From an uncultured Planctomycetales bacterium (GTDB lineage Bacteria; Planctomycetota; UBA1135): 29,218 nt of DNA. This document shows positions 9,724-20,927 of the stretch, piece after piece; position 1 is the first letter of the stretch; every line of letters begins with the position of its first letter. Under the pieces are notes generated by a model. That model had not been told where the DNA came from and did no database searches. It worked only from the letters and a program-made list of their open reading frames with translations. The position numbers were made by a program, and so were the translations under genes. The stretch spans positions 1 to 29,218 of the forward strand of contig CAZDMB010000005.1 of the NCBI GenBank assembly GCA_964506175.1, in the 5' to 3' direction.

Positions 9724-11688
9724 CTAGCAACCAGCGGATCGAGGTTTGCGCGCCGGAGCCGGCGCAGCGGCGGGGGCCGGCCGCGCCGCGGCCGGAGCGC
9801 CCGCGGCGGACGCGGCTTGGAGGACGCCCGCGCCGCCGAACGAGTCCTGCCACCAAGCGGCGGTGCCTCCGAGCAGCACGCGCACGTCGCGCTCCGGATG
9901 ACGCGCGAGCAAGGCGCCGGCAGCGGCGAAGGCCTGCGTGCCGTCACGGTCCAGAAGCACCGCGCGCGTTCCGGCCGGCAGCGCCCGCAGCGCGCCGTCG
10001 AGTTCGGCCGGCGCCAGATTCACCGCGCCGGGGACGTGGAATTCGGCGTAGTGGGTCGCGGGGCGCAGATCGAACAGCGCCCAGCGCCCTGGCTGGCTCT
10101 CCAACGCGCGCGCCAAGGCCGCCGCGTCCATCGCCTCGGGCAGGAGCAAGTCGGCGGCGGGTGCCGCCGTCGCCAACTCCTGCGCGGCCTCCCCTTCCAC
10201 GGCCTGGCCGGCGCTGATCCAGGCGTCGAGGCCGCCGTCCAAGCTCAGGACTTCGGCGAAGCCGAGCCGTTCCGCCAGACCCAACGCCATGCTGCTGCGA
10301 TAGGCGGAGTTGCAGGCGAACAGCGTCGCCTGCTTGGGATCGAGCACGCGAGCGAAGTCCTGCCAGTCGGAGAGCGGCAGCAGGCCGGTGCCGGGGATGC
10401 GCAACTCGGCGTGCTCGGCCGGCGTGCGCACGTCCACCAGCAGCGGCTCGGTGCCGGCGGCGATGCGGCGCGCCAGTTCGGCGGGCGACAGCAACTCGGC
10501 GCGTCGCACCGGCTGGCCGGCGCCTTGCCACGCGTCCATGCCGCCCGCCAGCCAGCCGCGCGGCGCGTCGTAGCCGATCCGGCGGAAGCGGAATGCGGCC
10601 TCGCGCGCGTCCGCCTCGGCGCCGATCAGCACGATCGGCGCGTCGAAGGGCACCACCGTGCCGAGCCAGGTGTCCACGCGGCCGCGCAGGGCGATGTTGA
10701 TGGCGCCGGCCACGTGGCCTGCGGCGTATTCTTGCTGACTGCGCAGGTCCACGAGCCATGCGCCGTGCGCCGCGAGATCCGCGACGGCCTGCGGCGTCAG
10801 CGCGGGCGGCGCTTCGTTCGTCCATTGCAGCACGGGCGGGCCCGCGCGGTTGAGCGCCACGTTGTGAGAGAAATACTGCGGCGCCACGGGCAGTCCGGCC
10901 ACCGTGCGGGAGATGAACGCGGCGCGCGACTGCGGCTGCAGATAGGGGTTGCTGCGTCGCTCCGCGCCGAGCAGCGCGCTCGTGTCCGGCGCCAGGTGCG
11001 CGCCGCACAGCGAGCCGGCGCCGTGCGCGGGCAGGATGCGCGTGGTGTCCGGCAAGGCCGCGAAGCGCGCGATCGAGTCGTAGGCCGCGTTCGCCAGCAG
11101 GGCGGGCGTGACCTCGCCGCCGACGAGATCGGGGCGGCCGATGCCGCCGAGGAACAGAGTGTCGCCGGTCAGGGCATAGGCGGGAGCCGTTGCGCCCCCG
11201 ACCCGCACGAGGGCGGTCATGGCGTCCAGGGTGTGGCCCGGGGTCGCCCAGAATTCCAACTCGGCGGAGCCGAAGCCGAAACGATCGCCGTCGTGCAGGG
11301 CGCGGTGCGGGAAGCCCGAATGGCTGGCGCCGCTGATCAAGATTTCGGCGCCCGCGCGCGCCGCCAGTTCCGTGTGTCCGGCCACGAAATCGGCATTGGT
11401 GTGCGAGAGGTAGACCGCGCGGATCTTGACCCCCAGATCCTGGGCGTCCTTGAGGTAGTGATCCACGTCCCGCATCGGGTCGACGACCACGGCCTCCCCG
11501 CCGGAGGCGAGCAGGTAGCTCAGTTGGGACAAGCATCCCAACTGGTATTGCCGCAGAAGGAAGTCCCCCGATCGCTCCTCGAAGGAGATCTGCGGGGTGG
11601 AAGCGGTGGCGGCGTGCGTGGCGGCCTCGGCGTCCTTGCCTTGAGGCAGCGGCAGGGCCAGGGCGAGTGCAAGGAGGGTGGGGCTCAT
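9724..11688 (-). CDS. CstB-like persulfide dioxygenase (MBL fold) fused to three rhodanese domains, with a predicted signal peptide and a C-terminal Cys tail
   Basis: LGCLSQLSYL, VVVDP, SHTNADFVAGH, TPGHT, LTGDTLF, PAHGAGSLCG and PQYF; rhodanese 1 has no Cys, rhodanese 2 has CNSAYRS, rhodanese 3 has Asp in place of Cys; the protein ends in an Ala/Pro linker plus RKPRSAGC. Confidence 0.9.
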   Translation of the reverse strand: MSPTLLALALALPLPQGKDAEAATHAATASTPQISFEERSGDFLLRQYQLGCLSQLSYLLASGGEAVVVDPMRDVDHYLKDAQDLGVKIRAVYLSHTNADFVAGHTELAARAGAEILISGASHSGFPHRALHDGDRFGFGSAELEFWATPGHTLDAMTALVRVGGATAPAYALTGDTLFLGGIGRPDLVGGEVTPALLANAAYDSIARFAALPDTTRILPAHGAGSLCGAHLAPDTSALLGAERRSNPYLQPQSRAAFISRTVAGLPVAPQYFSHNVALNRAGPPVLQWTNEAPPALTPQAVADLAAHGAWLVDLRSQQEYAAGHVAGAINIALRGRVDTWLGTVVPFDAPIVLIGAEADAREAAFRFRRIGYDAPRGWLAGGMDAWQGAGQPVRRAELLSPAELARRIAAGTEPLLVDVRTPAEHAELRIPGTGLLPLSDWQDFARVLDPKQATLFACNSAYRSSMALGLAERLGFAEVLSLDGGLDAWISAGQAVEGEAAQELATAAPAADLLLPEAMDAAALARALESQPGRWALFDLRPATHYAEFHVPGAVNLAPAELDGALRALPAGTRAVLLDRDGTQAFAAAGALLARHPERDVRVLLGGTAAWWQDSFGGAGVLQAASAAGAPAAARPAPAAAPAPARKPRSAGC

Positions 11689-11691
11689 CGT

Positions 11692-11724
11692 TCTATGCTT
11701 GTATGCGCATATTCGAGAGCGAAT
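11692..11724. promoter_or_regulatory. Candidate operator/promoter region of the sulfur operon
   Basis: AT-enriched patch with the perfect palindrome TATGCGCATA (11702-11711) and the inverted repeat ATTCG-AGAG-CGAAT (11711-11724), 13-36 nt upstream of ATG 11688, between divergent genes. Confidence 0.45.
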
Positions 11725-11776
11725 CCCTCATCCCCCGCACGCCTCCCTCCCCGCGCCGCGCTGGCAGGATTCCGCG

Positions 11777-13234
11777 GTGCATCCAGGCGACCGCGCCGTC
11801 GTCGCCCTCACGGGGGCGACCGGGTACGTCGGCGGCCGCTTGCTGCGGACGCTCGAAGCCGGCGGAGCTTCCGTGGTCTGCCTGGCGCGCCGCCCGGAGC
11901 ATCTGAACGGCAAAGTCGGGCCACGGACGCGCGTCGTCGCGGCCGACCTGCTGCAACCCGCCGGCCTGGAGGAAGCGCTCCAGGGGACGACGGTCGCCTA
12001 CTACCTCATCCATTCGATGGGCGCTCCGCAGGGCGACTTCGAGGAGCAGGATCGTCAGGCCGCGCGCAACTTCGGAGCGGCAGCGCGCGCCGCCGGCGTG
12101 CGGCGCATCGTCTACTTGGGCGGCTTGGCGCCGGCAGGGACGCGCCTCTCGCCGCATCTGCGCAGCCGGCATGAGGTCGGCGAGATCCTGCGCGCCGCCG
12201 GCGTCGAGACCATCGAGCTTCGCGCCTCCATCGTGCTCGGCGCGGGCAGCCTGTCGTTCGAGTTGGTGCGCGCACTGGTGGAACGATTGCCGTTCATGAT
12301 CGTCCCGCGTTGGACGCGCGTCGAGGCGCAGCCGATCGCCGTCGCCGACTTGATCGCTTACCTGGAGGAGGCCGCGCGTCTGCCGCCGGGTCCCAGCCGC
12401 GTCTATGAGATCGGCGGCGCGGACCGCTGCTCCTACGAAGGACTGATGAAGGAATACGCGCGGCAGCGCGGCCTGACGCGGCCCATGCTGCGCGTGCCGG
12501 TGATCACGCCGTGGCTCTCCAGCCTGTGGCTCGGCCTCGTGACCCCGCTGTACGCGCGCATCGGCCGCAAACTGATCGAGTCGATTCGCAACCCGTCGAT
12601 CATGCAGGACCTTTCGGCCCTGCGCGACTTTACGGTGCGCCCGCTGGGAGTCGCGGAGGCGATGCGACGTTCGCTCGAAGACGAGGAGCGGGAAGTGGTG
12701 CTCACCCGATGGCACGACGCCGTCTCGTCCTCGGGCAATCCGCGCTCGTGGGGCGGCGTGCGTTTCGGCAACCGCCTCGCGGACGCCCGCAGCATGCGGG
12801 TGCGCGTTCCTCCGGAGCGCGCCTTCATTCCCATTCAGCGCCTCGGCGGCGCTACCGGCTACTACGCCTGGAACTGGCTGTGGCGCCTCCGCGGAGCCCT
12901 CGACCTGTTGGCGGGCGGCGTCGGCATGCGGCGCGGCCGCGCCCATGCGCAGCAGTTGCGCGTCGGCGACGCCGTGGATTTCTGGCGCGTCGAGTCCTTC
13001 GAGCCGGGCCGGCGACTGCGGCTCGCCGCCGAAATGCGCCTGCCCGGACGCGCTTGGCTGGAGTTCGAAGTCGTGCCCGACGGCGCCGGCGCCAAGATCA
13101 TGCAGACCGCGGTGTTCGACCCCGTGGGAGTGCTGGGCAATCTGTACTGGTATCTGGTCTTTCCCCTGCACGCGCTCGTCTTTCGCGGCATGCTCAAGGG
13201 CATCGCGCGCGCGGCGGAGACGCCGGCGCCCTAG
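11777..13234 (+). CDS. NAD(P)-binding SDR-like oxidoreductase with C-terminal DUF2867 (YbjT-like)
   Basis: TGATGYVG Rossmann motif, YYLIHSM, RRIVYLGGL, GDAVDFWRV and EMRLPGRAWLEF. Start re-assigned to GTG 11777, which has CAGGAT 6 nt upstream; the track start at 11678 overlaps the divergent gene. Confidence 0.88.
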   Translation: MHPGDRAVVALTGATGYVGGRLLRTLEAGGASVVCLARRPEHLNGKVGPRTRVVAADLLQPAGLEEALQGTTVAYYLIHSMGAPQGDFEEQDRQAARNFGAAARAAGVRRIVYLGGLAPAGTRLSPHLRSRHEVGEILRAAGVETIELRASIVLGAGSLSFELVRALVERLPFMIVPRWTRVEAQPIAVADLIAYLEEAARLPPGPSRVYEIGGADRCSYEGLMKEYARQRGLTRPMLRVPVITPWLSSLWLGLVTPLYARIGRKLIESIRNPSIMQDLSALRDFTVRPLGVAEAMRRSLEDEEREVVLTRWHDAVSSSGNPRSWGGVRFGNRLADARSMRVRVPPERAFIPIQRLGGATGYYAWNWLWRLRGALDLLAGGVGMRRGRAHAQQLRVGDAVDFWRVESFEPGRRLRLAAEMRLPGRAWLEFEVVPDGAGAKIMQTAVFDPVGVLGNLYWYLVFPLHALVFRGMLKGIARAAETPAP

Positions 13235-13242
13235 GATCTGCC

Positions 13243-14814
13243 GTGCGCGCCTTCCTCTGGATTGCTCTCGCGGTCGGCCTGGGTCTGGCAGCGCGCGGCC
13301 TGCGCCCGCCGGCGCCGCGCGCCGCGGACGCTCCCGGCGCCGAGTTCTCGGCGGAGCGGGCCTTTCCGGCTATCGCGGCGCTGGCCGCCGCTCCGCGGGC
13401 GCGCCCGGCCACGCATCACGAGAAATCGCGCTCCTTTCTCGCGGGACGGCTGCGCGCGCTCGGCTTCGAGCCGCAGGAGCAGGCCGCCGTGGTGGACGGT
13501 CTGCCCGTGCGCAATCTCCTGGCGCGCCGCGCCGGCAGCGGCGCCCAGAGCGGCGCCGTGTTGCTGTGCGCGCACTACGATTCGGTCGCCGCCGGACAGG
13601 GCGCAGGCGACGATGCGCTCGGCTGCGCGGTGCTGCTCGAGCTGCTGCGCGCGCTCGGCGAGGCGCCGCCGCCGGCGCGCGATCTCATCGCGCTGTTCAC
13701 CGACGGCGAAGAGATCGCCCTGCTCGGCGCACGCGCCTTCCTGCTCGGCGGCGACGCCGCTTCCCCGCCGCATCCCTGGGCGCAAGACGTGGCCTTGGCC
13801 TTGAATTTCGAGGCGCGCGGCAGCGGCGGCCCGGCGTGGATGTTCCAGACCAGTGCGGGCAATCTCGACATGGTGCGGGCGCTGGCCGGCGCCCCGGCGC
13901 CTGCTGGGTCCTCGCTGGCGAAGGCGGTGTACGACCGGATGCCGAACGACACCGATTTGACGGTCTTCCTGCGCGCCGGCGTGCCGGGGATGAACTGGGC
14001 CTGCGTGGACCGCTTCGCCTCCTACCACACCAAGCTCGACGTGCCGGAGCGCCTCGATCGCGGCACGCTGCAGCAGATGGGCGATCAGGGCCTGACGATC
14101 GCGCGCTGGGCCCTGGACTGGCGCGGAGCGTTCGACGCCGGCAAAGACGCCGCCTACTTCACCATCCTTGGCGGGGTTTTCGTTCACCATCCGCTGCGCT
14201 GGACGCGCGCGCTGGCGCTCGTGCCTGCGCTCGCCTTTCTCGCGTGGTCGCGAGTCCGCCGACGCCGCCCCGGCGCCGTGGCGCTCGGCTTCCTGCCGGT
14301 GGCGGGCGCCCTGCTGATCGCCGCCGCCGTGATTCTCCTGGCGCAAGCGGCCGCTCCCGGCGCCTTCAGCATGGAGGCTTCCCATGCCAGCGACGACCAT
14401 CTGCGCGCGCTCGGACTGTCCGCCGCCCTGGCCGCAGCCGTGGCCGCGCTGCTGGTGCAGGATTGGGCGCGCCGCCGCTGGCCGCGCGCCGACGGCGATG
14501 CCGCCTCCCTGCTGCTCGCCGGCGCCGGCGCGGTCACCCTTTCCTTCGCCCTTCCCGAGGGCGCCTTCCTGCTGCTCGTGCCCGCGACCTGCGTGCCGCT
14601 GGCGCTGCTCGTGCCAGGAAGCGGCGCGGCCGCGTGGCTGGCGCGCGGCGCCGCCGTCGTGCTGGTGGCGAGCCTGATCGGCACGTGGGTCTACAGCCTG
14701 ATCATCGCCCTCGCCTTGCCGGCGGTGCTGGTTCCTTCGCTGCTGGCCGCGTTCACCGTGCTCGTGTTGCGCCCGCTGTGGACCGCTAGCCCGGCGGCGG
14801 CACCCAGCGCCTGA
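13243..14814 (+). CDS. M28 family membrane metallopeptidase (ER/vacuolar membrane protease-like)
   Basis: C-terminal part of track ORF 12511..14814. GTG 13243 has TAGGAT 5 nt upstream. Motifs LLCAHYDSV, GAGDDALG, FTDGEE, NFEARG, PNDTD and YHTKLD, followed by several TM helices. Confidence 0.9.
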   Translation: MRAFLWIALAVGLGLAARGLRPPAPRAADAPGAEFSAERAFPAIAALAAAPRARPATHHEKSRSFLAGRLRALGFEPQEQAAVVDGLPVRNLLARRAGSGAQSGAVLLCAHYDSVAAGQGAGDDALGCAVLLELLRALGEAPPPARDLIALFTDGEEIALLGARAFLLGGDAASPPHPWAQDVALALNFEARGSGGPAWMFQTSAGNLDMVRALAGAPAPAGSSLAKAVYDRMPNDTDLTVFLRAGVPGMNWACVDRFASYHTKLDVPERLDRGTLQQMGDQGLTIARWALDWRGAFDAGKDAAYFTILGGVFVHHPLRWTRALALVPALAFLAWSRVRRRRPGAVALGFLPVAGALLIAAAVILLAQAAAPGAFSMEASHASDDHLRALGLSAALAAAVAALLVQDWARRRWPRADGDAASLLLAGAGAVTLSFALPEGAFLLLVPATCVPLALLVPGSGAAAWLARGAAVVLVASLIGTWVYSLIIALALPAVLVPSLLAAFTVLVLRPLWTASPAAAPSA

Positions 14815-15709: not shown

Positions 15710-18364
15710 TCACTCCGCCGGGTCGGACTTGCGCTTCGCCTTGCCGGCCGACTTGGCGGCCCGCGCCATCTCCTTCAGACGGCGCTTCAACTCCTTGCGC
15801 ACGTCGCGCCCGAGCCGCTCCTGCAGCACGATCTCCAGTTCGCCGCCGGTTCCCGGGCCCTCGCCCGCGGCCGCCGGCACCGGCGCCGGCGCGCCCGGCC
15901 CGCGCGGTCCCGGCCGGCGCAGCACCACCAGGAAGGGATCGCGCAGCGCGCCGAGGAAACGGCGCCGCGCCAGCACCCGCACGGTGTCGCCGTGCACGAG
16001 CGCCTGCACGCGGCCCGCCCACTTGCAGTCGCGCTGCAAAGCGGCCACCGTCGACAAGCCGGCGTCCACGCCCTGGCGCCGGCCGAGGAGCTCCAGGCAG
16101 GCGCAGCACAGGCCATCCAGCATTTCCTTGTTGCTGACCGGCTGACGGCACAGGCCGCAGGGCTCGGTCTCGCCGACGTCCACCACCAGGCCGCTGATGC
16201 CGCAGTGCACCGCGCGATCGCGCGCAATCCGCTTGCCGGAGAGTTCGCTGATCACCAATTCGTCCGGGAACACGGGCCGGCGCGTGGTCTCGCACAGCAC
16301 GAGCAGCTCCTTCGCGCCGCGTTCGCCGCTCAGCTTCGAAACTCCCATGAACTGCGGCAGCATGCGCCGGCCGCTGCGCGAGCAGGTCTGTAGCATGTCT
16401 GGGCGCACCCGCTTGCCGCTGGCTTCGCAGGTGGCCAGGTACTCGTCCAGCACCTTGTTGCCGCTGACTTGACAAGTTCCGAGGAGTGACGGCAGAACGC
16501 GTTTGCCGGTCGCGGAGCAGGTGGCGAGTTCCTCCGGCAGGGCCGGCGCGCCGGTCACCGCGCAGTGCACGACGATGTCCTCGGTGATCTCGGCTCCCGA
16601 CACCGCCGAACGGACCAGGTTTTCCCGCAGCGTTTTCTTGCCGGTGCGCTCGCACGACACGAGCAGTTCCTTGAGCACCTTGCTGCCGGTCACTTCGTTG
16701 ACGCCGAGCAGCGAGGGCATCACGCGCTTGCCCGTGATGCTGCAGGCCTCGAGCACGCCCGGCGCCACCAGTTCGCCGCTGACTTCGCAGTGCTCGGCCA
16801 CGCGCCGCAGGATGCGCCGGTGGGTGGCCGCGCAGGCCACGAACTGGTCCGGGTGCGCCATCACCCCCGTGGCGGCGCAGCGCTCCAACTTGTCCGGCAG
16901 GGCCTGCCGACCGGTCTCCTGGCACTGCGTCAACTCGGTCGCCAGCACCTGCGCGCCGGTGATCGAGCACGAGCCGAAGCGTTCGGCCAGGGTGTGCAGG
17001 CCGGTGCGCGGGCACTTGCGCAGCAGGCGTTGCAGCACGCGCAAGCCGGTGACGTCGTCCATGCCGAGCAGCGAGCGCCGCACGCGGCGGCGCGTCGCCG
17101 CGCACGTCTCGAGCGCCTCCGGCGCGCACGGCGCGCCGGACTCCTCGCAAGCGATGGCCTTCTCCTTCAGCAACCAGTTGCCCGTCTCGGCGCACTGCAC
17201 CAGCAGGTCCTTGGCCACCCGGCGGCCGGTCACCGCGCAGGTGCCGATGTGCTCGGGCAGCACGCGGCGCCCGGTGGCGGCGCAAGTCTGCAGGAGGGAG
17301 CGCCGCACCCGGCGTCCGGTCGCCGCGCAGGCCTCGAGGCCCTCCGGCAGCACTTGCACGCCGGTGGCCGCGCAGGCGTCGAAGAACTGGGGACGCGCGC
17401 GTTTGCCGGTTTCCGGGCAGACCCGCAGCAGCGTGTGGCGAACTTCGGCGCCGCTCACTTCGCAGCGGCCGAGCGCCTCCGGCAGCACCATCAGGCCGGA
17501 TTCCGCGCACTTGCGCAGGTGGCTCGCGCAGCCGAAGGCGCCCGTCTCCGGGCAACTCGCGCCCTCTTCCGGCAGCAGCCGCGCACCGCAGCTGCTGCAG
17601 GCGCGGATTTCCTGCGGCAGGGCCAGGCGGCCGCTGGCGTCGCTGCGCACCATGGACTCGGGCAGGGCGCGCGCGCCGCTCACGGCGCTGGCCACGAAAA
17701 ACTCCTCCAGGCAGAGTTCGCCGCTGACCGGATCCTGGAACAGCAGGTCGCGCGCGACGCGCTTGCCGGAGCGCGCGCAGGTCGCGACTTCGTCCGGCAA
17801 CAGGGAGCGCCCGCTGGCGGCGCAGTTCACCAACTCGTCGGCGAAGGCCCAGCGGCCGGAGAGCGCGCTGCGCACGAGATCGACCTTCGGGCCGGCGCGG
17901 CCGGAGACCGCGGAGTGGGCGATCTCATCCTGCAGGAAGACGCGTCCGTCCGCCAGGGTCACGCAGCAAGCCGCGCACGCCCTGCCGCCGCCCGCCGTCA
18001 GCGTGAGATGCTCCGCGCACAGCGACTTGTCGCAACCGGCGCAGCTCGCGGCGTGGCGCTCGCAGTGCTCCTTGCCGCAGTCGGCGCAGGCGCTCAGGCC
18101 GCCGCTGTCCTGCGCATGTTCCGGGCAGTGGCCGTTCGTGCAGCCGGGAGTGGCGCAGGTGCGGATGGACCCAGCCGGGACCAGGTGGCCGCTGGCGCAG
18201 GCCCACAGCGGCGCATCCGCCGCGGCGCCGGCGGGCAAAGGCAGTTCGTCGAGCAACACGCCGCTCACCGGCACGCACCGCAGGCGCAACGGCCAGGCGG
18301 CGCTCTGATCGCGGTGGCGCACGCGCGCCTCCACCGTGACGATGGAGTAGAGCACGCCAATCAC
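15710..18364 (-). CDS. Cys-rich repeat protein: B-box-like Zn-finger cluster plus 39 tandem 15-aa C-x-x-[ST]-G repeats; probably the C-terminal half of the upstream helicase-like gene
   Basis: 884 aa ORF with host-like codon use. The frame stays open upstream to 18544 with no ATG/GTG/TTG before 18364, and good codons continue to about 18457 (ADLAAFLQHAAS...). Confidence 0.85.
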   Translation of the reverse strand: MIGVLYSIVTVEARVRHRDQSAAWPLRLRCVPVSGVLLDELPLPAGAAADAPLWACASGHLVPAGSIRTCATPGCTNGHCPEHAQDSGGLSACADCGKEHCERHAASCAGCDKSLCAEHLTLTAGGGRACAACCVTLADGRVFLQDEIAHSAVSGRAGPKVDLVRSALSGRWAFADELVNCAASGRSLLPDEVATCARSGKRVARDLLFQDPVSGELCLEEFFVASAVSGARALPESMVRSDASGRLALPQEIRACSSCGARLLPEEGASCPETGAFGCASHLRKCAESGLMVLPEALGRCEVSGAEVRHTLLRVCPETGKRARPQFFDACAATGVQVLPEGLEACAATGRRVRRSLLQTCAATGRRVLPEHIGTCAVTGRRVAKDLLVQCAETGNWLLKEKAIACEESGAPCAPEALETCAATRRRVRRSLLGMDDVTGLRVLQRLLRKCPRTGLHTLAERFGSCSITGAQVLATELTQCQETGRQALPDKLERCAATGVMAHPDQFVACAATHRRILRRVAEHCEVSGELVAPGVLEACSITGKRVMPSLLGVNEVTGSKVLKELLVSCERTGKKTLRENLVRSAVSGAEITEDIVVHCAVTGAPALPEELATCSATGKRVLPSLLGTCQVSGNKVLDEYLATCEASGKRVRPDMLQTCSRSGRRMLPQFMGVSKLSGERGAKELLVLCETTRRPVFPDELVISELSGKRIARDRAVHCGISGLVVDVGETEPCGLCRQPVSNKEMLDGLCCACLELLGRRQGVDAGLSTVAALQRDCKWAGRVQALVHGDTVRVLARRRFLGALRDPFLVVLRRPGPRGPGAPAPVPAAAGEGPGTGGELEIVLQERLGRDVRKELKRRLKEMARAAKSAGKAKRKSDPAE
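16160..17914 (-). repeat. Coding tandem repeat, 39 x 45 nt (15 aa), consensus C-x-x-[ST]-G-x-x-hydrophobic-x-x-x-x-hydrophobic-x-x
   Basis: Manual parsing from SAVSGRAGPKVDLVR (aa151) to CGISGLVVDVGETEP with no indels. Cys at position 1 in 29/39 units, Ser/Thr at position 4 in 38/39, Gly at position 5 in 36/39. Confidence 0.95.
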
Positions 18365-20927
18365 GCCCTCGCAGCGGGCGCGGAGCTGCGCCTCCGGGGC
18401 GGCGCGGTTGCCGGCGGTCTGCCGCGAAGCGGCATGCTGCAGGAACGCGGCCAGGTCCGCGCTCCCGCGCGGCCCCTTCGATCGTGGCGCCCGCGCGCTG
18501 GAAGGTCGCGGCGAGCGCGGCGCTGGCGGCCTCGTCCAGGGAGCTCACCATGGGCAGCCGCGAGCCATCGGGCGCCGGCAGAGTTTCCGGAGCGTCCAGA
18601 TAGGCCTCGAGCTTGTGCCCCGGGGCGCAGTCGCGTACTTCGAAGAGCGACTCCTGCCGCTCCGGGCCGCTGGCCGCGCAGGCGCTCATCTGCAAGGTGC
18701 TGGCCGCGATGGGTTCGCTCGCGGCGGCGCTCACGGATTCCAACAGCAGACCGTGGGCCGCGAGCCGCTCCTGCAGCTTGCGCGCCACCCGATCGAGCGG
18801 ATAGTTCCGCGCGTCCGCAAGGAAGAAGCGCGAGCCTTCGCGGAAGCCCGCCGTCAGGCGCTGCCAGGCCCACGAGCCCGGCTCGCACACGAGCACGCGC
18901 TCGCCGGCGGCCGGTTGGCGCGCCAGAGTGCGCCCTGCGGGGTCGGGCGTGCGCAACTCGAAGTGCTGGCCGCCCTCCTCCAGCAGGATGCGCTTGTCGT
19001 CGGTGACGTGCCAGCCTCCCGTGCGCAGCTCCAGGCTCGCCGCGACCAATTGCGCGACGCTGAACCGCGGCGGCTCGCCCAGGTTCTCGCGGCGCCGGCG
19101 GGGCGTGGTGCGCACCAGATCTCCGAGCACGCGATCGGTGTTGCGGCGCCGTTCGGCGCGGCCGCTCTCCGCGGCTTTGCGCTTCTCGATCAGCGGCAGC
19201 AACTCCTCCTCGCGCTGCGCGCCTTGGAACCAGTCGGCGGCGCGGCCCAGCAGGAAGCGCAGCCAGCCGCGCGCGCCGTCGGCAAAGCCGAGATCGGCGA
19301 GCCAGCCGCTGACTTCGTCCGGCTCGAGTTCGTGGAAGCCGAGGCGCGTCTGCGCGCCGTTGATGGCCGCGTCCTCGGCGGTGCCCTTGAGCACGAAGCG
19401 CCGGATCTGCGTCTTGCCGGACTTCGCGGCGCCCAGGTGCTCCAGGCGTCCCGCGTGATCGGCGGGCTCGAGCGGCAAGTCGAAGTGCACCAGTTCGGTG
19501 ACGGCGCGAATGGCTTGGCCGCGCGCGGCCGCGTCGGGCGCCAGCAGGATGCGGCGCTCGCCCAGGGTGAAGCGCTGGATGGCGAGGCGATTCAGGCCGT
19601 CGTTGCCCTCCCGCAGGGTTTCAAGGTGCTCGATCAAGCCGGCCTGCGACAGCGCCTGCCCCACGCCCGCGGCCGAAGCGGCGCTGCGCACGCAGACCAG
19701 GATGCGCGCCTCGCGATCCTTGAGCGCCTTGCGCGCCAGCGTCGCCAGCTCCGCCGTCTTCGCGGTCTCGCGCATGTTGCGCCCGCGGACGACCAGATCC
19801 TGCAGCATGCGCTTCAGACCAGCCTCGTTCACGAGGTTGCGCGACAGCGCCTTCTCGACCGCGTCGGCGAAGTGCCACGGTCCGCCGAGAGCGGCGGCCA
19901 GGTAGTGTTCGCGCGCGCCTTCCGGAAAGCCGAGAGCCGCGCGGAAGGCGAGTTCCAGGTATTCCTTCTCGCGCGGCTGCGTCTCGACCAGATGCTCCTT
20001 GACCGTGCGCCGCGGGCGCTTGGCGCCGGCTTCGGCCGGCCCCGCGCCGCGGCGGCGCATCCACGCCGCCAAGCGCGCGCGCAGTTCCTCTTCCGCCCCG
20101 CGGCGGACGAAACGCGCCTGCGCCTCGCCCTGCAAGAAGGTCTGCACGAACTCCTCCCACGGGCCGAGCGGGTGCGGCACCTGGCCGCGCACGAGGTCGA
20201 GCGCGCGGTGCAGCGTGGCGAAGCCGTCGTGCATCGGCGAGGAGCTGCGCGCGAAGACGAAGGCCTGCTCGGCGTTCAGCACGCGCCGCAGGGCGCGCTG
20301 GTTCTCGGCGCTCACTTCGTGCGCCTCGTCGATCAGGAGAATGCCGAATTCACGATCAGCGAGCTGCTGCGCGCGCTGCGCCGCGGTGGCGTGGTCGATC
20401 ACCCAGCAGGCGCCGTCGCGCAGGTGCGCGAAGTCGTCCTCGCCGCAGAGGCGCGCCGGCAGGCCGTATTCGGACTCGAGGCGCTCGACCCATTCCGCCG
20501 CGTTCGCCGCGGGGCACAGCACCAGCAGGCTGTCGGCCTGGCCGCGCTCGATCAGCTCGGCGGCCGCCACGGCCATCGCCTGGCGCACGGCGTCGCCGTC
20601 CTCGTCGCAGACGAGCGCCCGCGGACCCAAGTCGCGCAGCATGGCGAGCGCGTGTTCGATCACCGCGTCCGCCGGCTCGAGTTGCCGGCGCTCCAGACAG
20701 GAGAAATCCGCGCGCTCGTTCAGGGCCAGACCGCGCGCCAACTCGTGCTGCCGCACCGCGAGCCGCAGGCGGAAGGACTTGCGATCCGCCGCCGGCTTGT
20801 CGGCGCTCTCCAGCAGCCAAGCGGCGAGCGCCGGCGCTTCGAAGGGAATCTGTTGCGGAATCGCGGAGGCGCCGGGGTTCGGGGTCCCAGTCGCTCCCGA
20901 AATGGAGGCGGGCGAAAGCTTGCTCAT
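17925..20927 (-). CDS. SNF2/RapA/YqhH-like helicase homolog with degenerate ATPase motifs (pseudo-helicase); genuine coding probably ends near 18459 at a frameshift
   Basis: Likely start is ATG 20927. RALVCDEDGDAVRQ (motif I position), LLVLCPAANAAEW (Ia), LLIDEAHEV (II), ILLAPDAAARG (V) and HFDLPLEPADHAGRL (VI position). Translation turns into low-quality R/A/P-rich sequence after IEGAARER. Confidence 0.75.
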   Translation of the reverse strand: MSKLSPASISGATGTPNPGASAIPQQIPFEAPALAAWLLESADKPAADRKSFRLRLAVRQHELARGLALNERADFSCLERRQLEPADAVIEHALAMLRDLGPRALVCDEDGDAVRQAMAVAAAELIERGQADSLLVLCPAANAAEWVERLESEYGLPARLCGEDDFAHLRDGACWVIDHATAAQRAQQLADREFGILLIDEAHEVSAENQRALRRVLNAEQAFVFARSSSPMHDGFATLHRALDLVRGQVPHPLGPWEEFVQTFLQGEAQARFVRRGAEEELRARLAAWMRRRGAGPAEAGAKRPRRTVKEHLVETQPREKEYLELAFRAALGFPEGAREHYLAAALGGPWHFADAVEKALSRNLVNEAGLKRMLQDLVVRGRNMRETAKTAELATLARKALKDREARILVCVRSAASAAGVGQALSQAGLIEHLETLREGNDGLNRLAIQRFTLGERRILLAPDAAARGQAIRAVTELVHFDLPLEPADHAGRLEHLGAAKSGKTQIRRFVLKGTAEDAAINGAQTRLGFHELEPDEVSGWLADLGFADGARGWLRFLLGRAADWFQGAQREEELLPLIEKRKAAESGRAERRRNTDRVLGDLVRTTPRRRRENLGEPPRFSVAQLVAASLELRTGGWHVTDDKRILLEEGGQHFELRTPDPAGRTLARQPAAGERVLVCEPGSWAWQRLTAGFREGSRFFLADARNYPLDRVARKLQERLAAHGLLLESVSAAASEPIAASTLQMSACAASGPERQESLFEVRDCAPGHKLEAYLDAPETLPAPDGSRLPMVSSLDEAASAALAATFQRAGATIEGAARERGPGRVPAACRFAADRRQPRRPGGAAPRPLRGRDWRALLHRHGGGARAPPRSERRLAVAPAVRAGERRVARRTAFARRRRGGCAAVGLRQRPPGPGWVHPHLRHSRLHERPLPGTCAGQRRPERLRRLRQGALRAPRRELRRLRQVAVRGASHADGGRRQGVRGLLRDPGGRTRLPAG

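Follow-up and report, generated by a model that had tools for sequence, protein, structure and literature searches.

In the 29,218-nucleotide (nt) stretch of DNA analyzed here (the window; contig CAZDMB010000005.1 of assembly GCA_964506175.1, from an uncultured Planctomycetales bacterium), a minus-strand open reading frame (ORF) for a helicase-like protein is followed by a second one for a long series of Cys-containing repeats, which raises the question of whether these are two genes or the two halves of one. A sequence-only reading had proposed a single gene of about 1739 amino acids (aa), divided by a slip of 2 nt. Our analysis leads to the same answer: the two ORFs very probably form one gene of ~1739 codons on the minus strand of positions 15710-20927, interrupted at 18458 by an assembly error or a very recent frameshift, and its intact protein would consist of an eroded RapA-like body, Cys/His fingers, a rod of 39 repeats, and an end domain. 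The window is a contig of a fragmented draft genome (363 contigs, 2.73 Mb, N50 of ~10.9 kb, 81% completeness, 1330 N), with a G+C content of ~72% in the genome and ~74% in the gene region. The reading frames and the break point are laid out as follows.

15710-20927, minus strand: the whole gene if the frame is continuous, ~1739 codons plus a TGA stop codon (ORF listing, translation, and intact relatives)
20925-20927, minus strand: ATG start codon (N terminus aligned with the annotated starts of the relatives P0007 and P0009)
18458-18458, minus strand: break point, an orphan G between the codons CGC and GAC, the remnant of one codon (junction alignment)
17925-18458, minus strand: out-of-frame run-on of the helicase frame, 177 Arg/Pro/Gly-rich junk residues plus a stop codon, translated only if the break is real

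According to the ORF listing and the translation, the helicase frame begins at the ATG at 20927 and stays open as far as 17925, whereas the repeat frame extends without a stop between 18544 and its TGA at 15710-15712. The helicase frame is protein-like through residue 823, encoded by CGC at 18459-18461; the repeat frame consists of off-frame text ahead of GAC at 18455-18457 and is protein-like beyond this codon. The sequence at the junction is therefore GAG CGC G GAC CTG, and retranslation reproduced exactly the coordinates and codons that had been given for it before. Restoring 2 nt to the 5218 nt present yields the 5220-nt frame that had been predicted, corresponding to 1739 codons plus a stop, which is the length of the intact relatives (1739-1742 aa), and no further stop or shift was found in either half (823 and 915 codons). 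The repeat ORF had also been described as lacking an earlier start codon. Indeed, the first start codon in its frame is a GTG at 18364, which is located 31 codons into the region conserved among relatives; therefore, the C-terminal half does not have a start of its own.

The evidence for a single gene is strong and comes from intact orthologues, both in the same genus and in metagenomes. When 40 related genomes were searched with the C-terminal half, matches were found only in three genomes (G001, G002, and G003), all of the same genus. In G002, one complete open frame of 1805 aa spans the junction; this is the longest ORF, and the true start is probably internal, giving ~1740 aa. G003 likewise has a single frame across the junction, of 1739+ aa and ended by the end of the contig. 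In the third genome, G001, the orthologous gene is spread over two contigs, a breakage that is probably an assembly problem in the repeats. Here, the contig ends cut the gene near the start of the repeat array (L010, G001:C31, 6795-6797; L004, G001:C412), and the copy carries an in-frame TAG 56 nt from the contig end. With the G002 protein as query, eleven clusters were obtained from a large protein collection; their proteins are 1707-1742 aa long, 64-95% identical to it, and undivided in every case. The idea of a single gene would have been in difficulty had homologues of the two halves consistently been separate genes with their own starts, and among the close relatives the opposite is the case, with single frames throughout.

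The same relatives also indicate what happened at the junction. Twelve intact relatives carry the conserved marker motif that was used for locating it, and all twelve read R-x-R-X-[D/A/E]-L-x-x-F, in which X is exactly one residue (A, S, V, G, R, P, or E). In the DNA, CGC G GAC of the window corresponds to CGC TCC GAT of G003. Since the relatives have one residue at the site of the orphan base, the window either lacks 2 nt or has 1 nt too many, and the simplest reading of the alignment would be a loss of 2 nt within one codon, in a short GC-rich context. The consequences for annotation are considerable, as automated gene calling would give two unrelated hypothetical proteins, one of them with a 177-residue junk tail, in place of one protein of 1739 residues.

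The break is specific to this assembly and not a conserved feature of the gene. Because neither half contains another stop or shift, the lesion is either artefactual or very young, and we regard an error of consensus or assembly and a very recent, real frameshift as about equally likely. A genome-wide count of frameshift-like ORF pairs, judged by the G+C content at third codon positions, gave 257 candidates; as overlapping open frames are normal at 72% G+C, this number is uninformative about the quality of the assembly. That the organism itself has an intact 1739-residue gene, with the break introduced during consensus building or assembly, is a serious possibility. It would fit a fragmented draft and a region of ~74% G+C, as well as two halves that are otherwise flawless and conserved, and the G001 copy, broken at the repeat array and with its TAG near a contig end, implies that the locus is hard to assemble. 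However, the break in the window sits midway in a 29-kb contig, neither in the repeat array nor at a contig end. A genuine and very recent frameshift, making the gene a pseudogene or a population variant, is similarly conceivable. At 5.2 kb, the gene offers a large target, its family is as sporadic as accessory genes are (found in 3 of 300 other sampled genomes of the phylum), and the local GCGCGG context permits the loss of a dinucleotide, although no second lesion has accumulated in 1738 codons, and the two same-genus genomes with a complete assembly of the gene both have it intact and in a syntenic position. A real break would leave a truncated product of 1000 residues that ends in a junk tail and lacks the rod.

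Two further explanations of the break were considered. We consider it quite unlikely that a gene fission has been tolerated, with the motor part and the rod part (from the GTG at 18364) working as two polypeptides. While the motor and the repeat protein are encoded by neighbouring genes, each with its own start, in some distant members of the family (L024 and L074, described below), these natural splits fall just past the ATPase core, at about residue 600 instead of residue 823; the upstream frame of the window continues for 440 nt beyond the GTG, this codon lies 31 codons within conserved sequence, and its only candidate ribosome-binding site is a poorly spaced GAGG that precedes it by 1 nt. 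Programmed +1 (or -2) ribosomal frameshifting at CGC G GAC, an option that had been offered earlier and that could draw on the purine-rich GGGAG directly upstream of the CGC codon and on GGA, which would be a rare codon at 72% G+C, is most improbable, because the relatives read straight through (0 of 12 intact relatives need a shift), there is no slippery sequence at the site, re-pairing of the tRNA from CGC to GCG is impossible, and the 97 nt downstream form no stimulatory RNA structure (minimum free energy of -48.1 kcal/mol versus a shuffle mean of -47.2, z of -0.28).

With the single gene restored, the N-terminal half of its product can be considered as a degenerate Swi2/Snf2 body, made up of the following parts.

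19098-20732, minus strand: SNF2-type two-lobe ATPase core, residues 66-610, catalytically degenerate (AlphaFold2 [AF2], VIA, and motif table)
20580-20609, minus strand: remnant of motif I (Walker A), GLGKT changed to GDAVR, the degenerate form being kept in 11 of 11 clade clusters
20316-20333, minus strand: motif II, DEAH kept (alignment of relatives and motif table)
19431-19484, minus strand: degenerate motifs V/VI, with WNP changed to LEP, a 3-residue deletion, and an altered arginine-finger block (motif table)
18459-19097, minus strand: post-ATPase region resembling a spacer and C-terminal domain, residues 611-823 (in VIA, aligns only with RapA)

The AF2 model of this half (mean predicted local distance difference test [pLDDT] of 86.7, predicted template modeling score of 0.75) is disordered in its first 22 residues and has two RecA-like lobes with SNF2-type insertions, as VIA also finds. 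In VIA, residues 66-610 superpose on >40 SNF2 structures with Z scores of 18-20.6, and values of ~20 over this range were obtained with INO80, SRCAP, CSB, RapA, and a Sulfolobus Rad54-like core. The other SNF2 structures end near residue 610 in the alignment, leaving RapA as the only one to continue into the region behind it. RapA (HepA) is the RNA-polymerase-associated Swi2/Snf2 ATPase of Escherichia coli, which binds RNA polymerase and recycles it using ATP.

The catalytic motifs have not fared as well as the fold. Among motifs I, II, III, and VI, by which a Swi2/Snf2 ATPase is recognized, only the DEAH of motif II remains in the window, and motif III has changed from TATP to SSSP. These changes are shared by the clade to which the window belongs: all 11 clade clusters have GD[AG]xR for GLGKT, SSSP for TATP, the 3-residue deletion after motif V, and the altered arginine-finger block, and motif II is retained across the clade as DE[A/V/I][H/Q]. 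Outside the clade, 28 of 30 sequences have canonical motifs. P0014, a more distant homologue with canonical motifs, has the same overall architecture and is 32% identical to the full-length G002 protein over 91% coverage. In the lineage nearest to the window clade (P0016 and P0017), motifs I, II, and VI are also degenerate, with different residues; the motifs may have been lost a second time here, or the lineage may represent an earlier step of the loss seen in the clade. Since the degenerate motifs are themselves conserved, the window clade is best understood as a selected, ATPase-dead derivative and not as a product of decay; judging from these motifs, its ATPase is conserved but predicted to be dead. 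Pfam scores on the window are accordingly low (Helicase_C at 17.8 bits against a cut-off of 23.5, ResIII at 15.4 against 22.5), and no SNF2-rel_dom (PF00176) match was obtained there. The sequence-only reading had called this part a "pseudo-SNF2", a name that the predicted fold and the conserved erosion of the motifs both justify.

The C-terminal half begins behind the junction and contains the fingers, the rod, and the basic tail.

18218-18457, minus strand: linker and conserved beta segment, C-half residues 1-80 (conserved in relatives; AF2 strands at 40-62)
17918-18217, minus strand: Cys/His finger cluster of 100 residues with 13 Cys and 6 His, three times C-x2/4-C-x4-C-x2-H (columns conserved family-wide)
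16163-17917, minus strand: 39 in-phase 15-residue repeats with no insertion or deletion (sequence periodicity, AF2, and Pfam)
15809-16078, minus strand: small alpha+beta C-terminal domain, C-half residues 794-883 (AF2)
15713-15808, minus strand: long basic C-terminal helix (AF2 and composition)

The order of parts that had been proposed, with a dead SNF2 body followed by a linker, Cys/His fingers, 39 repeats, and a basic tail, thus stands, except for the description of the fingers as B-box-like. No zf-B_box match was obtained on C-half residues 81-180 at E values up to 10, and the spacing of the ligands differs from that of a B-box; only weak matches to WCCH, AN1, and IBR were found for the cluster in Pfam. 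In the array behind the fingers, identity is 0.31 at a lag of 15 residues and ~0.05 at other lags, and the consensus of the unit is x-C-x-x-[ST]-G-[RK]-R-V-L-P-[ED]-x-L-x. In the AF2 model (pLDDT of 82; 71-91 for individual blocks), each unit forms a beta-hairpin with a turn of three residues behind it. Charge is distributed unevenly within the units, with a net +16 at position 7, +17 at position 8, and -22 at position 12, and a Cys is found once per unit in 29 of the 39 units and is missing from 10. In a rod of such hairpins, these residues would form an Arg/Lys stripe and a Cys stripe along its length. The isoelectric point is 8.6 for the array and 10.3 for the last 150 residues.

Among the Pfam models, Zf_2nd_IFT121 (PF23145) matches three stretches of repeats 1-17 with 30.3 bits (cut-off of 25); the same repeats also match zf-ChsH2 and a rubredoxin-like ribbon weakly. 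Judging from their sequence, the repeats resemble zinc-knuckle hairpins whose second ligand has been lost. The four Cys/His ligands of a zinc-ribbon module are not found in the repeats. Classical four-ligand zinc sites are unlikely, as the second Cys of the knuckle has been replaced by Ser or Thr and the first is often Ser in distant members, and a metal-binding Cys ladder is doubtful. No credible equivalent of the array was found in the PDB (template modeling scores of <0.1 in Foldseek, only the small end domain aligned by VIA, and no phmmer match among PDB sequences), and a search of the ESM Atlas returned only unnamed planctomycete clusters. The VIA matches of the end domain are to PepSY, cystatin, and NTF2-like folds (Z of ≤7.5) and are not specific. 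In the precomputed annotation of the clade members P0008 and P0012, PF26196 is listed; our rescan gave no match, and this accession is absent from the Pfam copy that was scanned.

Beyond the window clade, the protein belongs to a large family. An exhaustive HMMER search with the C-terminal half identified 410 clusters (50% identity level) at E values of ≤1e-3, 105 of them at ≤1e-30. Most are 1200-2100 aa long with the repeats in the C-terminal part, and the number of repeat motifs, from 5 to 53, scales with protein length (r of 0.83). All 29 distant members that were sampled have SNF2 and Helicase_C (PF00271) above the Pfam threshold and no Pfam family over the remainder. Full-length members occur in metagenome-assembled genomes (MAGs) labelled Hyphomonadaceae, Alphaproteobacteria, Paceibacterota, Planctomycetia, Elusimicrobia, and Nitrospira. 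Two-gene forms with their own starts, split just after the ATPase core, were found in MAGs of Gemmatimonadales (L024; motor and repeat genes at 9791-11965 and 11962-14205, with a 4-nt overlap) and KSB3 (L074; 9566-11587 and 11577-13388). In an even sample of the window's own phylum, a member was present in just the 3 of 300 other genomes mentioned above, and the distribution of the family is sporadic, as for accessory genes. One member has been labelled "helicase/ribosomal protein S27E" by the Joint Genome Institute. We found no description of this architecture in the literature that was searched, and beyond its SNF2 core, the family is undescribed in the Pfam, NCBIfam, PADLOC, and PDB entries searched. 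The split itself is ordinary, a frame error in a draft genome, and the value of the locus lies in the reunited Swi2/Snf2 protein, with an undescribed rod and a dead motor. It exposes at least 410 clusters over many phyla, in which a RapA-type motor is joined to a repeat rod with no match in the solved structures searched, and in the motor-dead clade, nature has separated the role of the rod from that of the ATPase.

Whether such a protein serves in defence can be addressed from its surroundings. In the window, the neighbours are a short-chain dehydrogenase (same strand, downstream) and a divergently oriented di-haem peroxidase, and the Pfam content also includes PSCyt1, PSCyt2, PSD1, and DUF1501 genes, which are indicative of a planctomycete. 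Two of the three other genomes of the genus show synteny with the window for the upstream neighbours. This locus is not a defence island, and the earlier view of the protein as a strong candidate for a defence protein does not agree with such ordinary neighbours at a genus-syntenic site, integrases and defence genes being found only beside some distant members. At positions 13231-14814 of the window, long ORFs without a Pfam match are present on both strands (767 and 614 aa on the plus strand, 389 aa on the minus strand), in a region of strongly negative AT skew.

At nine distant loci, the neighbours include four phage-type integrases and a DNA methylase, and at an alphaproteobacterial locus, a MkoA-like helicase is encoded near the family member. 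In a MAG of Nitrospira sp. LK70 (L017, 2206-9188), the member lies beside an OLD/GajA-like ATPase-nuclease, a 413-aa protein, and an opposite-strand, SMC/LmuB-like protein of 1257 aa, in surroundings that look like a defence cluster. An Elusimicrobia MAG (L016, 1234-8429) has two consecutive proteins of ~1200 aa, with no PADLOC match, between a PDC-S02 PD-(D/E)XK gene and the member. These nine loci, a small sample with no background control, hint at a spread of active members within mobile or defence islands.

A possible mode of action of the protein can be outlined as follows. (i) In family members with an active ATPase, the motor would move on or remodel DNA or an RNA-polymerase complex, while a polymeric partner would be anchored or read by the fingers and by the rod, the length of which differs among members. 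(ii) In the window clade, the motor would be locked, and the protein would act as an ATP-independent, static binding scaffold. The protein may thus be a scaffold associated with nucleic acid or RNA polymerase, and as a whole, we put this combined motor and scaffold model forward tentatively. If the rod does bind nucleic acid or RNA polymerase, it would represent a new modular recognition scaffold of 15-residue units. A role in defence or as a sensor seems rather doubtful to us, and the remaining likelihood falls to some other, unforeseen function. In its most specific form, the sensor or defence proposal is that the family consists of stand-alone, horizontally mobile proteins, in which a RapA-like motor is combined with an Arg-striped rod that binds or measures a nucleic-acid polymer, and that the window clade is a domesticated, ATP-independent version at a fixed chromosomal site. 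We think this unlikely; if it were true, the window clade would show that a permanent shutdown of the motor leaves a function of the rod and the fingers in place.

Several points weigh against the picture of one gene for a RapA-derived scaffold. The sequence alone does not separate a 1-nt insertion (with loss of a residue) from the 2-nt deletion, and a copy from the same species was not found in metagenome contigs, where we searched for the exact junction pattern and where a protein query gave only a relative at 68%. No conserved neighbour gene was found in an all-against-all BLAST comparison of 64 neighbours from the nine distant loci, which gave one marginal match. Fold resemblance and the charge pattern are the only footing of the functional model, and as distant members often have Ser for the first Cys of the repeat, the Cys ladder does not necessarily bind metal. 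Lastly, no counterpart of the N-terminal domain of RapA (residues 1 to ~107) is present, as residue 33 of the model aligns to RapA residue 110.

Among the known systems with which this protein could be compared are generic bacterial SNF2 helicases, including those of phage defence. DISARM DrmD gave partial PADLOC and NCBIfam matches (E of 1e-9 to 1e-10 over ~150 residues), which reflect only the shared SNF2 fold, with a score of 39.9 bits for NF038317 against a cut-off of 610. ZorD of Zorya shares the SNF2 fold as well (Z of 19.3 in VIA). However, partner genes of DISARM or Zorya are absent from the window, and the C-terminal architecture is unrelated to theirs. Membership in DISARM was rejected on the score far under the cut-off and the missing partner genes. 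The rod recalls two kinds of hairpin repeats. Choline-binding or cell-wall repeats and the combined repetitive oligopeptide (CROP) solenoids, known from large clostridial toxins and glucansucrases, also build a rod from short hairpin repeats and gave weak Foldseek matches, but their units are 20-30 residues long, extracellular, and carbohydrate-binding, with template modeling scores of <0.1 and no sequence similarity. Zinc-ribbon and knuckle hairpins (Zf_2nd_IFT121, rubredoxin-like) resemble the single unit, each repeat being a hairpin with a C-x-x-[ST]-G knuckle, except that the second knuckle position is Ser or Thr instead of Cys in 38 of the 39 repeats here. To our knowledge, an array of 39 in-phase units of this type has not been described. 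The closest known protein is RapA itself (PDB 6BOG, 8SO8, and 8T0L). While the window clade differs from it in its dead ATPase motifs, in ~900 extra residues (fingers, 39 repeats, and end domain), and in a score of only 15.4 bits (E of 0.004) for NCBIfam NF003426, against a cut-off of 576, RapA is the best Foldseek match (E of 7e-20) and the only solved SNF2 protein that aligned over the whole N-terminal half, with residues 33-823 of the model corresponding to RapA 110-902 (634-669 residues aligned, Z of 19.9-20.5 in VIA), and in both proteins, the ATPase core is followed by a spacer and a C-terminal domain.

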